Assembly (NCBI RefSeq): GCF_003018255.1
Contig: NZ_CP027440.1
Direction: 5' to 3' (one strand)
DNA length: 64,000 nt
DNA from: Escherichia coli
GTDB taxonomy: Bacteria > Pseudomonadota > Gammaproteobacteria > Enterobacterales > Enterobacteriaceae
Program-made: the position numbers and the translations under genes
Notes under the pieces: generated by a model
Database searches by the model: none
Told to the model about the DNA's origin: nothing
The model's input: only the letters and a program-made list of their open reading frames with translations
Shown here: one piece after another, positions 26,529-35,791 of the stretch
Numbering within the stretch: the first letter of the stretch is position 1
Layout of the letters: every line of letters begins with the position of its first letter

Positions 26529-26806
26529 TTTCCCCTCTCCCACAAGCAATAAATCAAAATTCCCAAAGCTGCGGGATTGTACTGCCTGGCACAGAGGATT
26601 CAATGAGCGAAAAAAGGGATCTAGTCACTTATTGTAACTAAATACTTCTTAAATAATTAAACGCCGAAAAAATAAACATACTTTATCGATACACACAAAA
26701 ATAATAATAAGTGCAGTTATCATCGCAAAAGAGATTACTGTCACTTTCACATATTTCTGAGTTACCGTATTCTCATGGTTTCTTTTTATTTATAAGGAAT
26801 ACCCCT

Positions 26807-27270: not shown

Positions 27271-27873
27271 TTAGTGGTTAACGAATTCCCCATCCAGATA
27301 AACTTTGCCTTTTTCCACATGCATGACTAAACCATCCAGATAATCAGGTTTAAATGTCGCATCACGCTTATCTTTAGCAATATATGTCAGGCAATGATTA
27401 TGGGTGAAAATAACGATATTTTTATCAGGCGCTTTGCTTTGTAAGTCCTTAATTGCACTATAAATCTCATTACCGCACTGAAGAAGTCGTTTATCTACCG
27501 TCAGCTTTTTACCCGCTGAAAACCAGGTCGCCGACTGAATGGTCCGGACGGTATTACTGGAATAAAGATCGAAATCAGGGATATCAGCACTAAAAGCGTT
27601 GCCCAGTTCACGGGCATCCTGGGTACCTTTAACCGTAATACCTGTTTTATCTGACAAGCATTGGTTGGTTGAACGATCGCAACGTTCAGCATGGCGAAAC
27701 AAAACGACAACCGGATGCTGCTGTGCCAGTCTGGCCAGCGTTTTATTGTCGATACGTGGCAAACCATTGCTACTCCAGGCGGCATGAGTACCCAGTCCGG
27801 CAATTGCAGCGAGCGCCAGTAAAATGATGAAATATTTTTTTGACTTCAACGAAGAGCGGCAAAAAGCTAACAC
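27271..27873 (-). CDS. ais: Ais (aluminium-inducible, histidine-phosphatase-like) protein
   Basis: ORF 27271-27930; probable GTG start at 27873 giving 200 aa with a signal peptide; histidine phosphatase motif RHAERCD. Confidence 0.75.
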
Positions 27874-28065
27874 GTAAACTCCACCTATAGACAAGCGCAA
27901 CCAGACAATTACCGTGAAATTGAGCGACATTTCTGGCGATAATTAGCAGTTGGTGTAATATTAAAAATCCTGCGATGCCGGCAAAATGCCTCAAAATTTT
28001 GCCAAATGCAAAGCCTAAATAAGAAAAAATATAAAAATTTCAATATTTACGTCTAATATTAGTTT

Positions 28066-28082
28066 CTTAAGGTTAAGTTAAT
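28066..28082. promoter_or_regulatory. PmrA(BasR)-box-like direct repeat CTTAAG-GTTAA-GTTAAT upstream of arnB
   Basis: Matches the YTTAAK-N5-YTTAAK PmrA box; lies about 100 bp upstream of the arnB start in the ais/arnB divergent region. Confidence 0.45.
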
Positions 28083-28180
28083 ATTCTATCCTTAAAATTT
28101 TGCTCCAAATGGCAAAATATACACAACACTCTTTATAGCAAATATAAGTGGACAGGTATTCAATGGCGGAAGGAAAAGCA

Positions 28181-29320
28181 ATGTCAGAATTTTTGCCTTT
28201 TTCGCGACCAGCAATGGGCGTGGAGGAACTCGCTGCAGTTAAAGAGGTTCTCGAATCCGGTTGGATCACAACCGGTCCGAAGAATCAGGCGCTTGAACAA
28301 GCCTTTTGCCAGTTGACGGGAAATCAGCATGCCATCGCGGTCAGTTCAGCCACCGCCGGAATGCATATCACGCTAATGGCGTTGGAAATTGGCAAGGGCG
28401 ATGAAGTGATTACGCCTTCCCTGACCTGGGTTTCAACCCTCAATATGATTTCCTTGTTGGATGCAACGCCGGTAATGGTGGATGTCGACCACGATACGCT
28501 GATGGTCACGCCTGAAGCGATCGAGTCAGCCATTACGCCACGCACTAAAGCCATCATTCCGGTGCATTATGCCGGTGCGCCAGCAGATATTGACGCCATT
28601 CGCGCCATTGGCGAACGTTACGGCATCGCAGTTATCGAAGATGCTGCCCATGCCGTCGGTACGTATTACAAAGGCCGACATATTGGCGCAAAAGGTACCG
28701 CTATTTTTTCGTTTCACGCCATCAAAAATATTACCTGTGCGGAAGGTGGCCTGATTGTTACAGATAATGAAAACCTTGCCCGCCAGCTACGGATGCTAAA
28801 ATTTCACGGTCTGGGTGTCGATGCCTATGACAGACAAACCTGGGGCCGTGCACCGCAAGCTGAAGTCTTAACGCCGGGCTATAAGTATAATCTGACCGAT
28901 ATTAACGCCGCGATTGCCCTGACCCAGTTAGCCAAATTAGAGCACCTCAACACCCGTCGGCGCGAAATTGCTCTGCAATATCAACAAGCACTGGCAGCTC
29001 TCCCTTTTCAGCCATTAAGCCTTCCCGCCTGGCCGCACGTTCACGCCTGGCATCTGTTTATTATTCGTGTCGATGAACAACGTTGTGGTATCAGTCGCGA
29101 TGCGTTGATGGAAGCGTTAAAAGAAAGAGGCATTGGTACCGGGTTACATTTCCGCGCCGCTCACACACAAAAATATTATCGCGAGCGTTTTCCCACGCTG
29201 TCGTTACCGAATACCGAATGGAATAGCGAACGCATCTGTTCGTTGCCGCTGTTCCCGGATATGACCACCGCCGATGCCGACCGCGTCATCACAGCCCTTC
29301 AGCAACTCGCAGGACAATAA
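28181..29320 (+). CDS. arnB: UDP-4-amino-4-deoxy-L-arabinose--oxoglutarate aminotransferase (PLP)
   Basis: ORF 28148-29320; start [23 protein letters not shown] at 28181 preferred (28148 is an alternative); DegT/ArnB aminotransferase family. Confidence 0.93.
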
Positions 29321-30291
<971 letters not shown>

Positions 30292-30292
<1 letters not shown>

Positions 30293-32274
30293 TGAAAACC
30301 GTCGTTTTTGCCTACCACGATATGGGATGCCTCGGTATTGAAGCCCTGCTGTCTGCCGGTTACGAAATTAGCGCCATTTTTACCCATACCGATAATCCCG
30401 GTGAAAAAGCCTTTTATGGTTCGGTGGCTCGTCTGGCGGCGGAAAGAGGCATTCCAGTTTATGCGCCGGATAACGTTAATCATCCGCTGTGGGTGGAACG
30501 TATTGCCCAACTCTCACCAGAGGTGATTTTCTCTTTTTATTATCGCCATCTTATTTGCGACGAGATTTTGCAGCTCGCTCCCGCAGGTGCATTTAATCTG
30601 CACGGTTCGCTGTTACCAAAATATCGTGGTCGCGCGCCGCTGAACTGGGTGCTGGTGAACGGTGAAACGGAAACTGGCGTTACATTGCACCGAATGGTGA
30701 AACGTGCCGATGCCGGGGCCATTGTGGCGCAACTGCGCATTGCCATTGCGCCAGACGATATCGCCATTACGCTGCATCATAAATTGTGCCATGCCGCGCG
30801 CCAGCTACTGGAACAGACATTACCCGCCATTAAACACGGTAATATTCTGGAAATCGCCCAGCGCGAAAACGAAGCCACCTGTTTTGGTCGCAGAACACCG
30901 GAAGACAGTTTCCTCGAATGGCATAAACCGGCATCCGTGCTGCACAACATGGTGCGTGCCGTTGCCGATCCGTGGCCGGGTGCCTTCAGCTATGTTGGTA
31001 ATCAGAAATTTACCGTCTGGTCGTCACGCGTGCATTCTCATGCGCCCGCAGCACAACCGGGGAGCGTGATTTCTGTTGCGCCACTGCTGATTGCCTGTGG
31101 CGATGGCGCGCTGGAAATCGTCACCGGACAGGCGGGCGACGGCATTACTATGCAGGGCTCGCAATTAGCGCAGACGCTGGGCCTGGTGCAAGGTTCACGC
31201 TTGAATAGCCAGCCTGCCTGCACCGCCCGACGCCGTACTCGGGTACTCATCCTCGGGGTGAATGGCTTTATTGGCAACCATCTGACAGAACGCCTGCTGC
31301 GCGAAGATCATTATGAAGTTTACGGTCTGGATATCGGCAGCGATGCGATAAGCCGTTTTCTGAATCATCCGCATTTTCACTTTGTCGAAGGCGATATCAG
31401 TATTCATTCCGAATGGATTGAGTATCACGTCAAAAAATGTGATGTCGTCTTGCCGCTGGTGGCGATAGCCACGCCGATTGAATATACCCGCAACCCACTG
31501 CGCGTATTTGAACTCGATTTTGAAGAGAATCTGCGCATTATCCGCTACTGCGTGAAGTACCGTAAGCGAATCATCTTCCCGTCGACTTCAGAAGTTTATG
31601 GGATGTGTAGCGATAAATACTTCGATGAGGACCATTCTAATTTAATCGTCGGCCCGGTGAATAAACCACGCTGGATTTATTCGGTGTCTAAACAATTACT
31701 TGATCGAGTGATCTGGGCCTATGGCGAAAAAGAGGGTTTACAGTTCACCCTCTTCCGCCCGTTTAACTGGATGGGGCCTCGACTGGATAACCTTAATGCG
31801 GCACGAATCGGCAGCTCCCGCGCTATTACGCAACTCATTCTCAATCTGGTAGAAGGTTCACCGATTAAGCTGATTGATGGCGGAAAACAAAAACGCTGCT
31901 TTACTGATATTCGCGATGGTATCGAGGCGTTATACCGCATCATCGAAAATGCGGGAAATCGCTGCGACGGCGAAATTATCAACATTGGCAATCCTGCGAA
32001 CGAAGCGAGCATTGAGGAACTGGGCGAGATGCTGCTGGCGAGCTTCGAAAAACATCCGCTGCGCCATCACTTCCCACCGTTTGCGGGCTTTCGTGTTGTC
32101 GAAAGTAGCAGCTACTACGGCAAAGGATATCAGGACGTAGAGCATCGTAAACCGAGCATCCGCAATGCCCGCCGCTGCCTGGACTGGGAACCCAAAATTG
32201 ATATGCAGGAAACCATCGACGAAACGCTGGATTTCTTCCTGCGCACCGTTGATCTTACGGATAAACCATCATGA
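30292..32274 (+). CDS. arnA: bifunctional UDP-glucuronate decarboxylase / UDP-Ara4N formyltransferase
   Basis: 660-aa ORF; N-terminal formyltransferase domain and C-terminal SDR domain ([10 protein letters not shown]). Confidence 0.96.
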
Positions 32275-33161
32275 CCAAAGTAGGCTTACGCATTGATGTC
32301 GATACCTTTCGTGGCACCCGTGAAGGCGTGCCGCGTCTGCTGGAAATCTTGAGTAAGCATAATATTCAGGCCAGCATTTTTTTCAGCGTCGGCCCGGACA
32401 ATATGGGCCGCCATCTCTGGCGACTGGTGAAGCCACAGTTTTTGTGGAAGATGCTGCGCTCAAACGCGGCATCGCTTTATGGCTGGGATATTTTACTGGC
32501 AGGTACGGCCTGGCCGGGTAAAGAGATTGGTCATGCCAATGCCGATATCATTCGTGAAGCGGCTAAACATCACGAAGTCGGCCTGCACGCCTGGGATCAC
32601 CATGCCTGGCAAGCCCATAGCGGTAATTGGGATCGGCAAACAATGATCGACGATATCGCACGCGGCCTTCGCACCCTGGAAGAAATTATCGGCCAACCGG
32701 TAACCTGCTCCGCAGCCGCTGGCTGGCGTGCCGACCAGCAGGTGATCGAAGCAAAAGAAGCGTTCCATTTGCGCTACAACAGCGATTGTCGTGGGGCGAT
32801 GCCGTTTCGTCCACTGCTCGAATCAGGAAACCCTGGTACTGCGCAAATTCCGGTGACCTTACCCACCTGGGATGAAGTGATTGGTCGGGATGTGAAAGCA
32901 GAAGATTTTAACGGTTGGTTACTCAATCGCATCCTGCGAGATAAAGGCACGCCGGTTTATACCATTCATGCAGAAGTTGAAGGCTGCGCTTATCAGCATA
33001 ATTTTGTGGATCTCCTTAAACGGGCAGCCCAGGAAGGCGTGACATTTTGCCCTTTAAGCGAACTGTTATCAGGGATGTTGCCGCTCGGACAAGTTGTTCG
33101 CGGAAATATTGCCGGACGTGAAGGCTGGCTGGGTTGCCAACAAATTGCGGGTAGTCGCTGA
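32271..33161 (+). CDS. arnD: 4-deoxy-4-formamido-L-arabinose-phosphoundecaprenol deformylase
   Basis: 296-aa polysaccharide-deacetylase-like ORF overlapping the arnA stop (ATGA). Confidence 0.93.
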
Positions 33162-34813
33162 TGAAATCGGTACGTTACCTTATCGGCCTCTTCGCGTTTA
33201 TTGCCTGCTATTACCTGTTACCGATCAGCACGCGTCTGCTATGGCAACCCGATGAAACGCGTTATGCGGAAATCAGTCGAGAAATGCTGGCATCCGGCGA
33301 CTGGATTGTGCCCCATCTGTTAGGGCTACGTTATTTCGAAAAACCCATTGCCGGATACTGGATTAACAGCATTGGGCAATGGCTATTTGGCGCGAATAAC
33401 TTTGGTGTGCGGGCAGGCGTTATCTTTGCGACCCTGTTAACTGCCGCGCTGGTGACCTGGTTTACTCTGCGCTTATGGCGCGATAAACGTCTGGCTCTAC
33501 TCGCCGCAGTGATTTATCTCTCATTGTTTATTGTCTATGCCATTGGCACTTATGCCGTGCTCGATCCGTTTATTGCCTTCTGGCTGGTGGCGGGAATGTG
33601 CAGCTTCTGGCTGGCAATGCAGGCACAGACGTGGAAAGGCAAAAGCGCGGGATTTTTACTGCTGGGAATCACTTGCGGCATGGGGGTGATGACCAAAGGT
33701 TTTCTCGCCCTTGCCGTGCCGGTATTAAGCGTGCTTCCATGGGTTGCAACGCAAAAACGCTGGAAAGATCTCTTTATTTACGGCTGGCTGGCGGTCATCA
33801 GTTGCGTACTGACGGTTCTCCCCTGGGGACTGGCGATAGCGCAGCGGGAGCCTGACTTCTGGCACTATTTTTTCTGGGTTGAGCATATTCAACGCTTTGC
33901 AATGGATGATGCCCAACATAGAGCTCCGTTCTGGTACTACTTGCCGGTCATCATTGCCGGTAGCCTGCCGTGGCTGGGATTACTCCCCGGAGCACTGTAC
34001 GCAGGCTGGAAAAACCGCAAGCATTCCGCAACCGTCTATTTGTTGAGCTGGACGATAATGCCGCTGTTGTTTTTCTCCGTCGCCAAAGGCAAATTGCCCA
34101 CCTATATTCTTTCTTGCTTTGCTCCTCTGGCAATGCTGATGGCGCATTACGCTTTGCTGGCAGCAAAAAATAATCCTCTGGCGTTGCGGATTAATGGCTG
34201 GATTAACATCGCTTTTGGCGTCACTGGCATTATTGCCACATTTGTGGTCTCCCCCTGGGGAGCAATGAACACGCCGGTGTGGCAAACCTTCGAGAGCTAT
34301 AAAGTCTTTTGTGCCTGGTCGATTTTTTCGCTATGGGCATTTTTCGGCTGGTACACCTTAACAAACGTCGAAAAGACCTGGTCTTTTGCCGCGCTTTGCC
34401 CGCTGGGGCTGGCGTTGCTGGTAGGATTTTCAATTCCTGACAGAGTCATGGAAGGAAAACATCCGCAATTTTTTGTCGAGATGACACAAGAATCACTTCA
34501 GCCAAGCCGCTATATTCTTACTGATAGCGTCGGTGTTGCCGCAGGTCTGGCATGGAGCCTGCAACGCGATGACATCATCATGTATCGCCAGACAGGTGAG
34601 TTGAAATACGGCCTTAATTATCCGGATGCGAAAGGGAGATTTGTCAGCGGTGATGAGTTCGCAAACTGGCTTAATCAACATCGTCAGGAGGGGATTATTA
34701 CACTCGTGCTTTCGGTTGACCGCAATGAAGATATCAACAGTCTCGCCATTCCGCCCGCAGATGCCATCGATCGTCAGGAGCGTCTGGTGCTGATTCAGTA
34801 TCGTCCCAAATGA
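33161..34813 (+). CDS. arnT: undecaprenyl-phosphate-alpha-L-Ara4N:lipid A arabinosyltransferase (GT83)
   Basis: 550-aa polytopic membrane protein. Confidence 0.95.
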
Positions 34814-35145
34814 TCTGGCTAACATTAGTCTTTGCCAGCTTGCTTAGCGTTGCCGGGCAGTTGTGTCAGAAACAGGCAACCTGCTTTGTGGCGATAAACA
34901 AACGGCGCAAACATATCGTGCTGTGGCTGGGACTGGCGCTGGCTTGTCTTGGTCTTGCCATGGTGCTCTGGCTGCTGGTCTTGCAGAACGTACCGGTAGG
35001 CATTGCCTACCCGATGTTAAGTCTGAATTTTGTCTGGGTGACGCTGGCTGCAGTAAAACTGTGGCACGAACCGGTATCGCCGCGTCACTGGTGTGGGGTG
35101 GCGTTCATTATTGGTGGCATTGTGATCCTCGGGAGTACCGTGTAA
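34810..35145 (+). CDS. arnE: undecaprenyl-phosphate-Ara4N flippase subunit ArnE
   Basis: 111-aa 4-TM SMR-like protein; overlaps the arnT stop. Confidence 0.85.
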
Positions 35146-35531
35146 TGGGCCTGATGTGGGGATTATTCAGCGTCATTATCGCCTCCGCTGCGCAATTAAG
35201 CCTGGGTTTTGCGGCGAGTCATCTGCCGCCGATGACGCACTTATGGGATTTTATCGCGGCGTTGTTAGCTTTTGGCCTGGATGCCCGGATACTGTTACTC
35301 GGGCTGCTGGGTTATCTGCTTTCCGTTTTTTGTTGGTATAAAACACTACATAAACTTGCACTAAGCAAAGCCTATGCCTTGCTCAGTATGAGTTATGTGC
35401 TGGTATGGATTGCTTCAATGGTACTTCCCGGCTGGGAAGGGACTTTTTCGCTGAAAGCACTACTGGGAGTAGCCTGTATTATGAGCGGGTTGATGCTGAT
35501 TTTCCTGCCCACAACAAAACAACGTTACTGA
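35145..35531 (+). CDS. arnF: undecaprenyl-phosphate-Ara4N flippase subunit ArnF
   Basis: Internal start [22 protein letters not shown] at 35145 within ORF 34863-35531, overlapping the arnE stop; 128-aa 4-TM protein. Confidence 0.8.
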
Positions 35532-35791
35532 GTTTTCCCTGCCGCTTTACACTGCCGTTCCCACTCATCGGGGCTATAACAGCTTGCAGAAAGGACTTTC
35601 ACCGTGTGCAGCTTTTCACGATTAATACAGTAAAGCGCATTCTGCAAAGGCGAGAGTAAATCCCCCACTTTCACGGCGAAGTCACTCTTCACTTCGGCGA
35701 TCATTTTTATCGCGCCGCCAGCATCGCAGAGCATAATTACATGTCTGTTATCTTGTTTATTGCAGCACGATTTTTTGACCAGCCATTCCAT
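35525..35791 (-). CDS. pmrD: PmrD connector protein (links PhoPQ to PmrAB/BasRS)
   Basis: ORF 35525-35821; start [18 protein letters not shown] at 35791 (88 aa). Confidence 0.8.

Follow-up and report, generated by a model that had tools for sequence, protein, structure and literature searches.

The PmrA/BasR Box of the arnB Promoter in Escherichia coli: Sequence, Conservation, and Promoter Geometry

The spacer between the divergent genes ais and arnB of Escherichia coli carries a direct repeat of two hexamers, CTTAAG-N5-GTTAAT, ahead of the operon for aminoarabinose (Ara4N) modification of lipid A. Is this repeat the site through which PmrA (BasR) controls the operon, and does it serve ais as well? 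Here, we report an analysis of the spacer within a stretch of 64,000 nucleotides (the window, to which all coordinates refer). The repeat at 28066-28082 is the PmrA/BasR box already described for the arnB promoter; it is not a discovery, and our analysis adds nothing to established, textbook PmrA/BasR regulation. Through this box the cell switches on aminoarabinose modification of lipid A, which in enteric bacteria is the main way in which the chromosome confers tolerance to polymyxin and colistin, and its correct annotation helps, for example, when promoter mutations or IS insertions are interpreted in isolates from the clinic.

The locus is on the E. coli chromosome, where a 701-bp query across the ais-arnB region matched 5,418 of 5,426 complete E. 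coli genomes, several of them with 100% identity and with ais and arnB annotated. By the RefSeq annotation of identical E. coli sequence, positions 27874-28180 are exactly the non-coding ais-arnB spacer, and the order in one identical strain is nudI, ais (−), arnB-C-A-D-T-E-F (+), pmrD (−), menE. An earlier note on this DNA, made from sequence alone, had proposed that ais and arnB diverge here, that the arn operon follows, and that pmrD lies at the operon end; all three were identified from the open reading frames and RefSeq annotation, as follows.

27271..27873, minus strand: ais (pmrG), lipopolysaccharide (LPS) core heptose(II)-phosphate phosphatase, divergent from arnB (open reading frames and RefSeq annotation).
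28181..35531, plus strand: arnBCADTEF operon, Ara4N modification of lipid A (open reading frames and RefSeq annotation of identical sequence).
28181-29320, plus strand: arnB, with its ATG at 28181.
35525..35791, minus strand: pmrD, PhoP-activated connector protein protecting phospho-PmrA (annotation and sequence).

The start codon of ais is GTG (27873-27871, minus strand), and pmrD is convergent with arnF, whose stop at 35531 it overlaps. The start of arnB is annotated inconsistently: the K-12 RefSeq record uses an in-frame ATG at 28163 (385 amino acids), and other RefSeq records use 28181 (379 amino acids). Both ATGs are kept in four species. An AAGGA Shine-Dalgarno sequence stands ahead of the second ATG (28181), and residue 1 of the 379-amino-acid form is where the alignment of distant ArnB orthologues begins.

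Within the spacer, the feature in question is a single 17-mer, supported by its sequence, a position weight matrix (PWM), orthologues, and the literature.

28066..28082, plus strand: PmrA/BasR box, CTTAAGGTTAAGTTAAT.

The box is made up of half-site 1, CTTAAG (28066-28071), a 5-nt spacer, GTTAA (28072-28076), and half-site 2, GTTAAT (28077-28082), that is, two YTTAAK-type hexamers in direct repeat 5 bp apart. Its sole departure from YTTAAK is the G at the first base of half-site 2, a position that is variable (A15/C36/G14/T9) among 74 orthologous boxes. The direct repeat read in the earlier note is present on the arnB strand and unique in the window (one exact match, 0.01 expected), and its hexamer-repeat architecture is that of the experimentally defined Salmonella PmrA box (CTTAAG, 5 bp, XTTAAT; PMC3973317). 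A PmrA PWM scan, which the same note had put forward as a check, was run with a matrix built from 43 distinct non-Escherichia boxes of arnB promoters; 28066-28082 ranked first of ~128,000 positions (64-kb window, both strands) with 25.8 bits, and the runner-up scored 13.5 bits. The loose consensus YTTAAK-N5-YTTAAK with one mismatch allowed gave four matches in the window versus 2.6 expected. Such a degenerate pattern is not rare, so the significance of the box rests on context, and this lack of enrichment is the point in favor of taking the repeat for a functionless chance match in an AT-rich spacer.

Context was provided by orthologous promoters. An ArnB protein scan (one genome per species) yielded 80 orthologous loci spanning Escherichia albertii, Citrobacter, Salmonella, Klebsiella, Enterobacter, Kosakonia, Erwinia, Pantoea, Dickeya, and others. 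In almost every one, the arnB strand carries a CTTAAK-N5-nYTAAK box 115 to 250 nt ahead of the start codon, and the box scored at least 10 of 11 in 77 of the 80. When counting was confined to the 78 loci whose upstream sequence reached 300 nt or more, the full box was found on the arnB strand in 62 and on the opposite strand in 2, with 0.7 expected by shuffling. Related species thus keep the site ahead of the same target gene, and the literature likewise describes the yfbE (arnB) motif instance as conserved across Salmonella, E. coli, and Yersinia.

We then aligned 74 distinct orthologous promoters with the box as anchor and examined the columns that had not been used in site selection. A T directly precedes the box in 63 of the 74 promoters, TT occupies box positions 8 and 9 (55/74 and 71/74, respectively), and columns 28, 29, and 33 are T (72/74), A (74/74), and T (74/74). 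Of the 62 loci whose box is complete, 61 have a TAnnnT hexamer that begins 11 nt after it (a 10-nt gap). This comparison over ~75 species amounts to clean confirmation of the site, with TAnnnT 10 nt past the box and the first base of half-site 2 free. At closer range, the box is invariant in six diverse E. coli strains (including K-12, UTI89, and an O157-like isolate), among which positions of the nearby spacer vary, and the E. albertii box differs only in its last base, which is C instead of T. A chance match, to which we give a negligible probability, is already refuted by the PWM ranking, in which the box leads by 12 bits, and by orthologue conservation, as position, strand, and −10 spacing are kept in 61 to 62 of 78 orthologous loci versus 0.7 expected; the invariance within E. 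coli also stands against it.

The conserved columns downstream of the box define the remainder of the arnB promoter.

28093..28098, plus strand: −10 hexamer TAAAAT of the PmrA-dependent arnB promoter (orthologue columns; fixed spacing to the box).
28104..28106, plus strand: predicted arnB transcription start (from the −10 position).

TAAAAT was invariant in the six sampled E. coli strains. With a start near 28105, the predicted 5′ untranslated region (UTR) would be ~76 nt long to the ATG at 28181, and the box would span about −39 to −23. No TTGACA-like −35 hexamer was reported by a promoter consensus scan at the right place on the plus strand, and the arnB promoter lacks one because the box occupies that position. 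As the conserved −10 follows at fixed spacing, the box replaces the −35 element. It is oriented with arnB, at a fixed distance from the −10, and lies on the correct side of the predicted start, upstream of the conserved −10 with a fixed 10-nt gap.

A comparison with the Salmonella pbgP promoter, also suggested in the earlier note, supported this anatomy. Salmonella enterica pbgP (pmrH/arnB) belongs to the same orthologous divergent pair (pmrG/ais and pbgP/arnB). The box of S. diarizonae, CTTAATGTTAATTTAAT, is at the same offset as the window box (115 nt before the ATG), the gap from box to TAnnnT −10 is 10 nt in both, and the pattern published for Salmonella, CTTAAG-N5-XTTAAT, is matched exactly in the window (PMC3973317). 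The differences are three bases within the 17-mer, a −10 of TAGGGT in Salmonella versus TAAAAT in the window, and an ais-side spacer that is 10 nt shorter in Salmonella.

The same features recur in Klebsiella pneumoniae. Box1 of its pbgP promoter (CTTAAT-ATTAT-CCTAAG) is, like the window box, a direct repeat in an 11-bp register that replaces the −35 element, and the Klebsiella locus in our set (L038) has the same 10-nt gap to its native −10; the footprint of box1 at −170 coincides with the box position found in that locus. Half-site 2 is CCTAAG in Klebsiella versus GTTAAT in the window. Cryo-electron microscopy (cryo-EM) of K. pneumoniae PmrA with E. coli RNA polymerase and DNA places the pmra-box at about −37 to −21, where it replaces the −35 element (PMC10570014), a crystal structure for the Klebsiella system is available (4S05), and PmrA is ~76% identical between the species (PMC3973317). 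PmrA footprints have been reported for Salmonella and Klebsiella promoters (PMC3973317, PMC2565834). Klebsiella differs further in having a PhoP box and another promoter that depends on PhoP (PMC2565834), whereas the E. coli spacer has no PhoP-box-like site: a search of 27874-28180 for (T/G)GTTTA-N5-(T/G)GTTTA with up to two mismatches gave no match. The arnB promoter of the window is therefore not of the PhoP-box type, in which PhoP controls arnB directly, as in Klebsiella and Yersinia. This agrees with reports that E. coli and Salmonella are without an arnB PhoP box (PMC2565834; bioRxiv 10.1101/2020.05.05.080051). A more distant likeness is to the pho-box promoters of PhoB (pstS), where an activator of the OmpR/PhoB family binds head-to-tail on an 11-bp-spaced repeat, stands in for the −35 element, and touches sigma region 4 (PMC10570014); half-site sequence and regulator are different there, making it a mechanistic analogue and not the same site family.

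Published work on E. coli bears directly on whether the box is used. In strain MG1655, a ParnB-gfp fusion was induced by FeSO4 and by pH 5.8, and induction at pH 5.8 needed pmrA, pmrD, and phoP (bioRxiv 10.1101/2020.05.05.080051). Elsewhere, pbgP and pmrG (ais) of E. coli are counted among the genes that PmrA activates and that respond to Fe3+ (PMC3140997), and a 2023 paper on enteropathogenic E. coli (EPEC) O125ac:H6 had already pointed to this exact 17-mer as the PmrA site in the arn promoter (PMC10729948). The earlier note had named two findings that would count against its reading, namely, no BasR-dependent induction or a box on the wrong side of the transcription start. With pmrA dependence published and the box upstream of a conserved −10, neither is the case.

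Very probably, then, the box is part of an activator-dependent sigma-70 promoter that drives arnBCADTEF and is bound by phosphorylated BasR (BasR-P). This model draws on the sequence, uniqueness, conservation, orientation, and fixed −10 spacing observed here, relies on the literature for the dependence of E. coli induction on pmrA and for the way in which protein, DNA, and polymerase are arranged with the Klebsiella orthologue, and includes the exact start site as a prediction. The sequence of events would be as follows. BasS (PmrB) would sense Fe3+, Al3+, or mild acid or, as an alternative trigger, PhoP-induced PmrD would shield BasR-P. A BasR-P dimer, its receiver domains paired head-to-head, would bind the box with its two DNA-binding domains arranged head-to-tail, one per TTAA half-site and 11 bp apart. 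The bound dimer would bend the DNA and contact sigma region 4 and the RNA polymerase core, and the polymerase thus recruited would transcribe from near 28105. For the family, it has been described that PmrA-P dimerizes via its receiver domains, with winged-helix domains head-to-tail reading a TAA core, that the DNA is bent, and that the proximal PmrA domain makes up for the absent −35 element by touching sigma region 4 and the polymerase core (all PMC10570014, PMC3973317).

A different reading of the same DNA has been proposed for EPEC O125ac:H6. Here, the site would be mainly a QseB operator, or one shared by QseB and PmrA, at which PmrA occludes polymerase and represses while QseB-P, phosphorylated by PmrB, activates. 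The only electrophoretic mobility shift assay (EMSA) on an E. coli fragment that we found in the literature was performed with QseB (PMC10729948), on the following fragment.

28045..28104, strand not specified: 60-bp fragment shifted by phosphorylated QseB in EMSA (oligonucleotide identical to the window; PMC10729948).

The shift of this 60-mer by QseB-P, together with the constitutive upregulation of arnB and eptA in a pmrA qseC double mutant (PMC10729948), speaks for the proposal. However, the 60-mer includes the complete PmrA box, so the EMSA cannot tell whether QseB has a site of its own there or, as a paralogue of PmrA, binds the box, and the QseB motif predicted just upstream of the box is not kept even in E. 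albertii. The need for pmrA in low-pH induction of E. coli ParnB-gfp (bioRxiv 10.1101/2020.05.05.080051) also runs against QseB as the main activator, as does the promoter itself: the lack of a −35 hexamer and the fixed box-to-(−10) spacing across 61 species are the signature of an activator-dependent promoter, and the geometry matches the Klebsiella PmrA activation complex. We consider an operator mainly of QseB, or shared by QseB and PmrA with PmrA as repressor, improbable and retain activation by BasR-P as the preferred reading.

The other half of the question concerns ais. Among the loci fetched, ais was divergent from arnB only in Escherichia, Salmonella (S. diarizonae), and one Citrobacter. 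Alignment of four ais-arnB spacers (E. coli, E. albertii, Citrobacter R56, and S. diarizonae) revealed a second conserved block at ~27983-28015, the core of which, AAAATGCCTYAAA, occurs only in ais-carrying loci. This block holds a promoter-like element.

27983..28011, minus strand: candidate ais promoter, TTGCAT (28011-28006), 17 nt, CATTTT (27988-27983), deduced from the conserved block.

Both hexamers and their 17-nt spacing are kept, and the sequence between them differs in Citrobacter. On this pattern, TTGCAT-17-CATTTT is plausible as a weak sigma-70 promoter from which ais would be transcribed starting near 27976; the block at 27983-28015 was not found annotated or described elsewhere. 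Two other candidates in this part of the spacer were set aside. A minus-strand promoter, TAGACG-16-TATATT (28055-28028, consensus scan), was a weaker candidate for ais than TTGCAT-17-CATTTT because its −10 is absent in E. albertii. A hairpin, GGCAAAAT-N8-ATTTTGCC (27980-28003), is not kept in Salmonella or Citrobacter, though the sequence block is conserved, and its region may be read instead as part of the promoter-like block.

Scanning both strands of these four spacers with the PWM gave no second PmrA box facing ais; the best minus-strand matches were the same box read backwards (0.5 to 9.4 bits). The distance from the box to the ais promoter-like element is 54, 54, 54, and 44 nt in the four species. 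These distances would be compatible with a shared, helically phased site, the length being kept within one helical turn; as this evidence consists of four sequences, two of them from close relatives, it is only a lead. The activator model could be extended so that the single box works both ways, with a BasR-P dimer activating arnB from −35 and ais from about −90 to −100, an extension that we offer tentatively and think rather unlikely. No description of far-upstream, reverse-oriented activation by PmrA was found in the accessible literature.

Several further elements were noted in and around the spacer. A palindrome across the predicted arnB start, ATTTTGC-N8-GCAAAAT (28097-28118, 7-bp arms), was rejected as an operator or 5′ UTR hairpin because it is broken by T28102C in K-12 and is unsupported as a conserved E. 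coli element. Differences from the window in the 50-mer holding this palindrome were found in 3,602 of 5,413 genomes, and the three such strains that were aligned all carried T28102C; the palindrome is also mismatched in E. albertii. Apparently, T28102C disrupts the palindrome in most E. coli genomes; it is a change in the initial transcribed region that varies from strain to strain. A perfect 10-bp palindrome, CTAATATTAG (28053-28062), abuts the box upstream, inside the region of the QseB-motif prediction of PMC10729948, and is not conserved in E. albertii. Searches for Rfam families (27600-28500, E value of ≤1) and for terminators in the spacer found none, and the only small open reading frames in the spacer were unconserved frames overlapping known genes. 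Elsewhere in the window, a weak PmrA-like/PhoP-like repeat, TTTAAGAAGTATTTAGT / TATTTAAGAAGTATTTA, lies on the minus strand in the yfaZ-nudI spacer (26637-26655); it came up in both consensus scans with one to two mismatches and is probably an AT-rich chance match.

Finally, IS1 was found inside the PmrA box in 2 of 5,426 complete E. coli genomes, those of strains 266917_2 and EC5931, at the same position (28066-28074) and in opposite orientations, which indicates two independent insertion events.

L087 (CP026723), 440-520 and 1200-1300: IS1 insertion locus.
L085 (CP104592), 150-330: IS1 insertion locus.

These insertions are possibly related to a reading of the box in two directions. In strain 266917_2, the 9-bp IS1 target duplication, CTTAAGGTT, rebuilds an intact box beside arnB, half-site 1 alone is left on the ais side, and the IS1 cuts ais off from the box.
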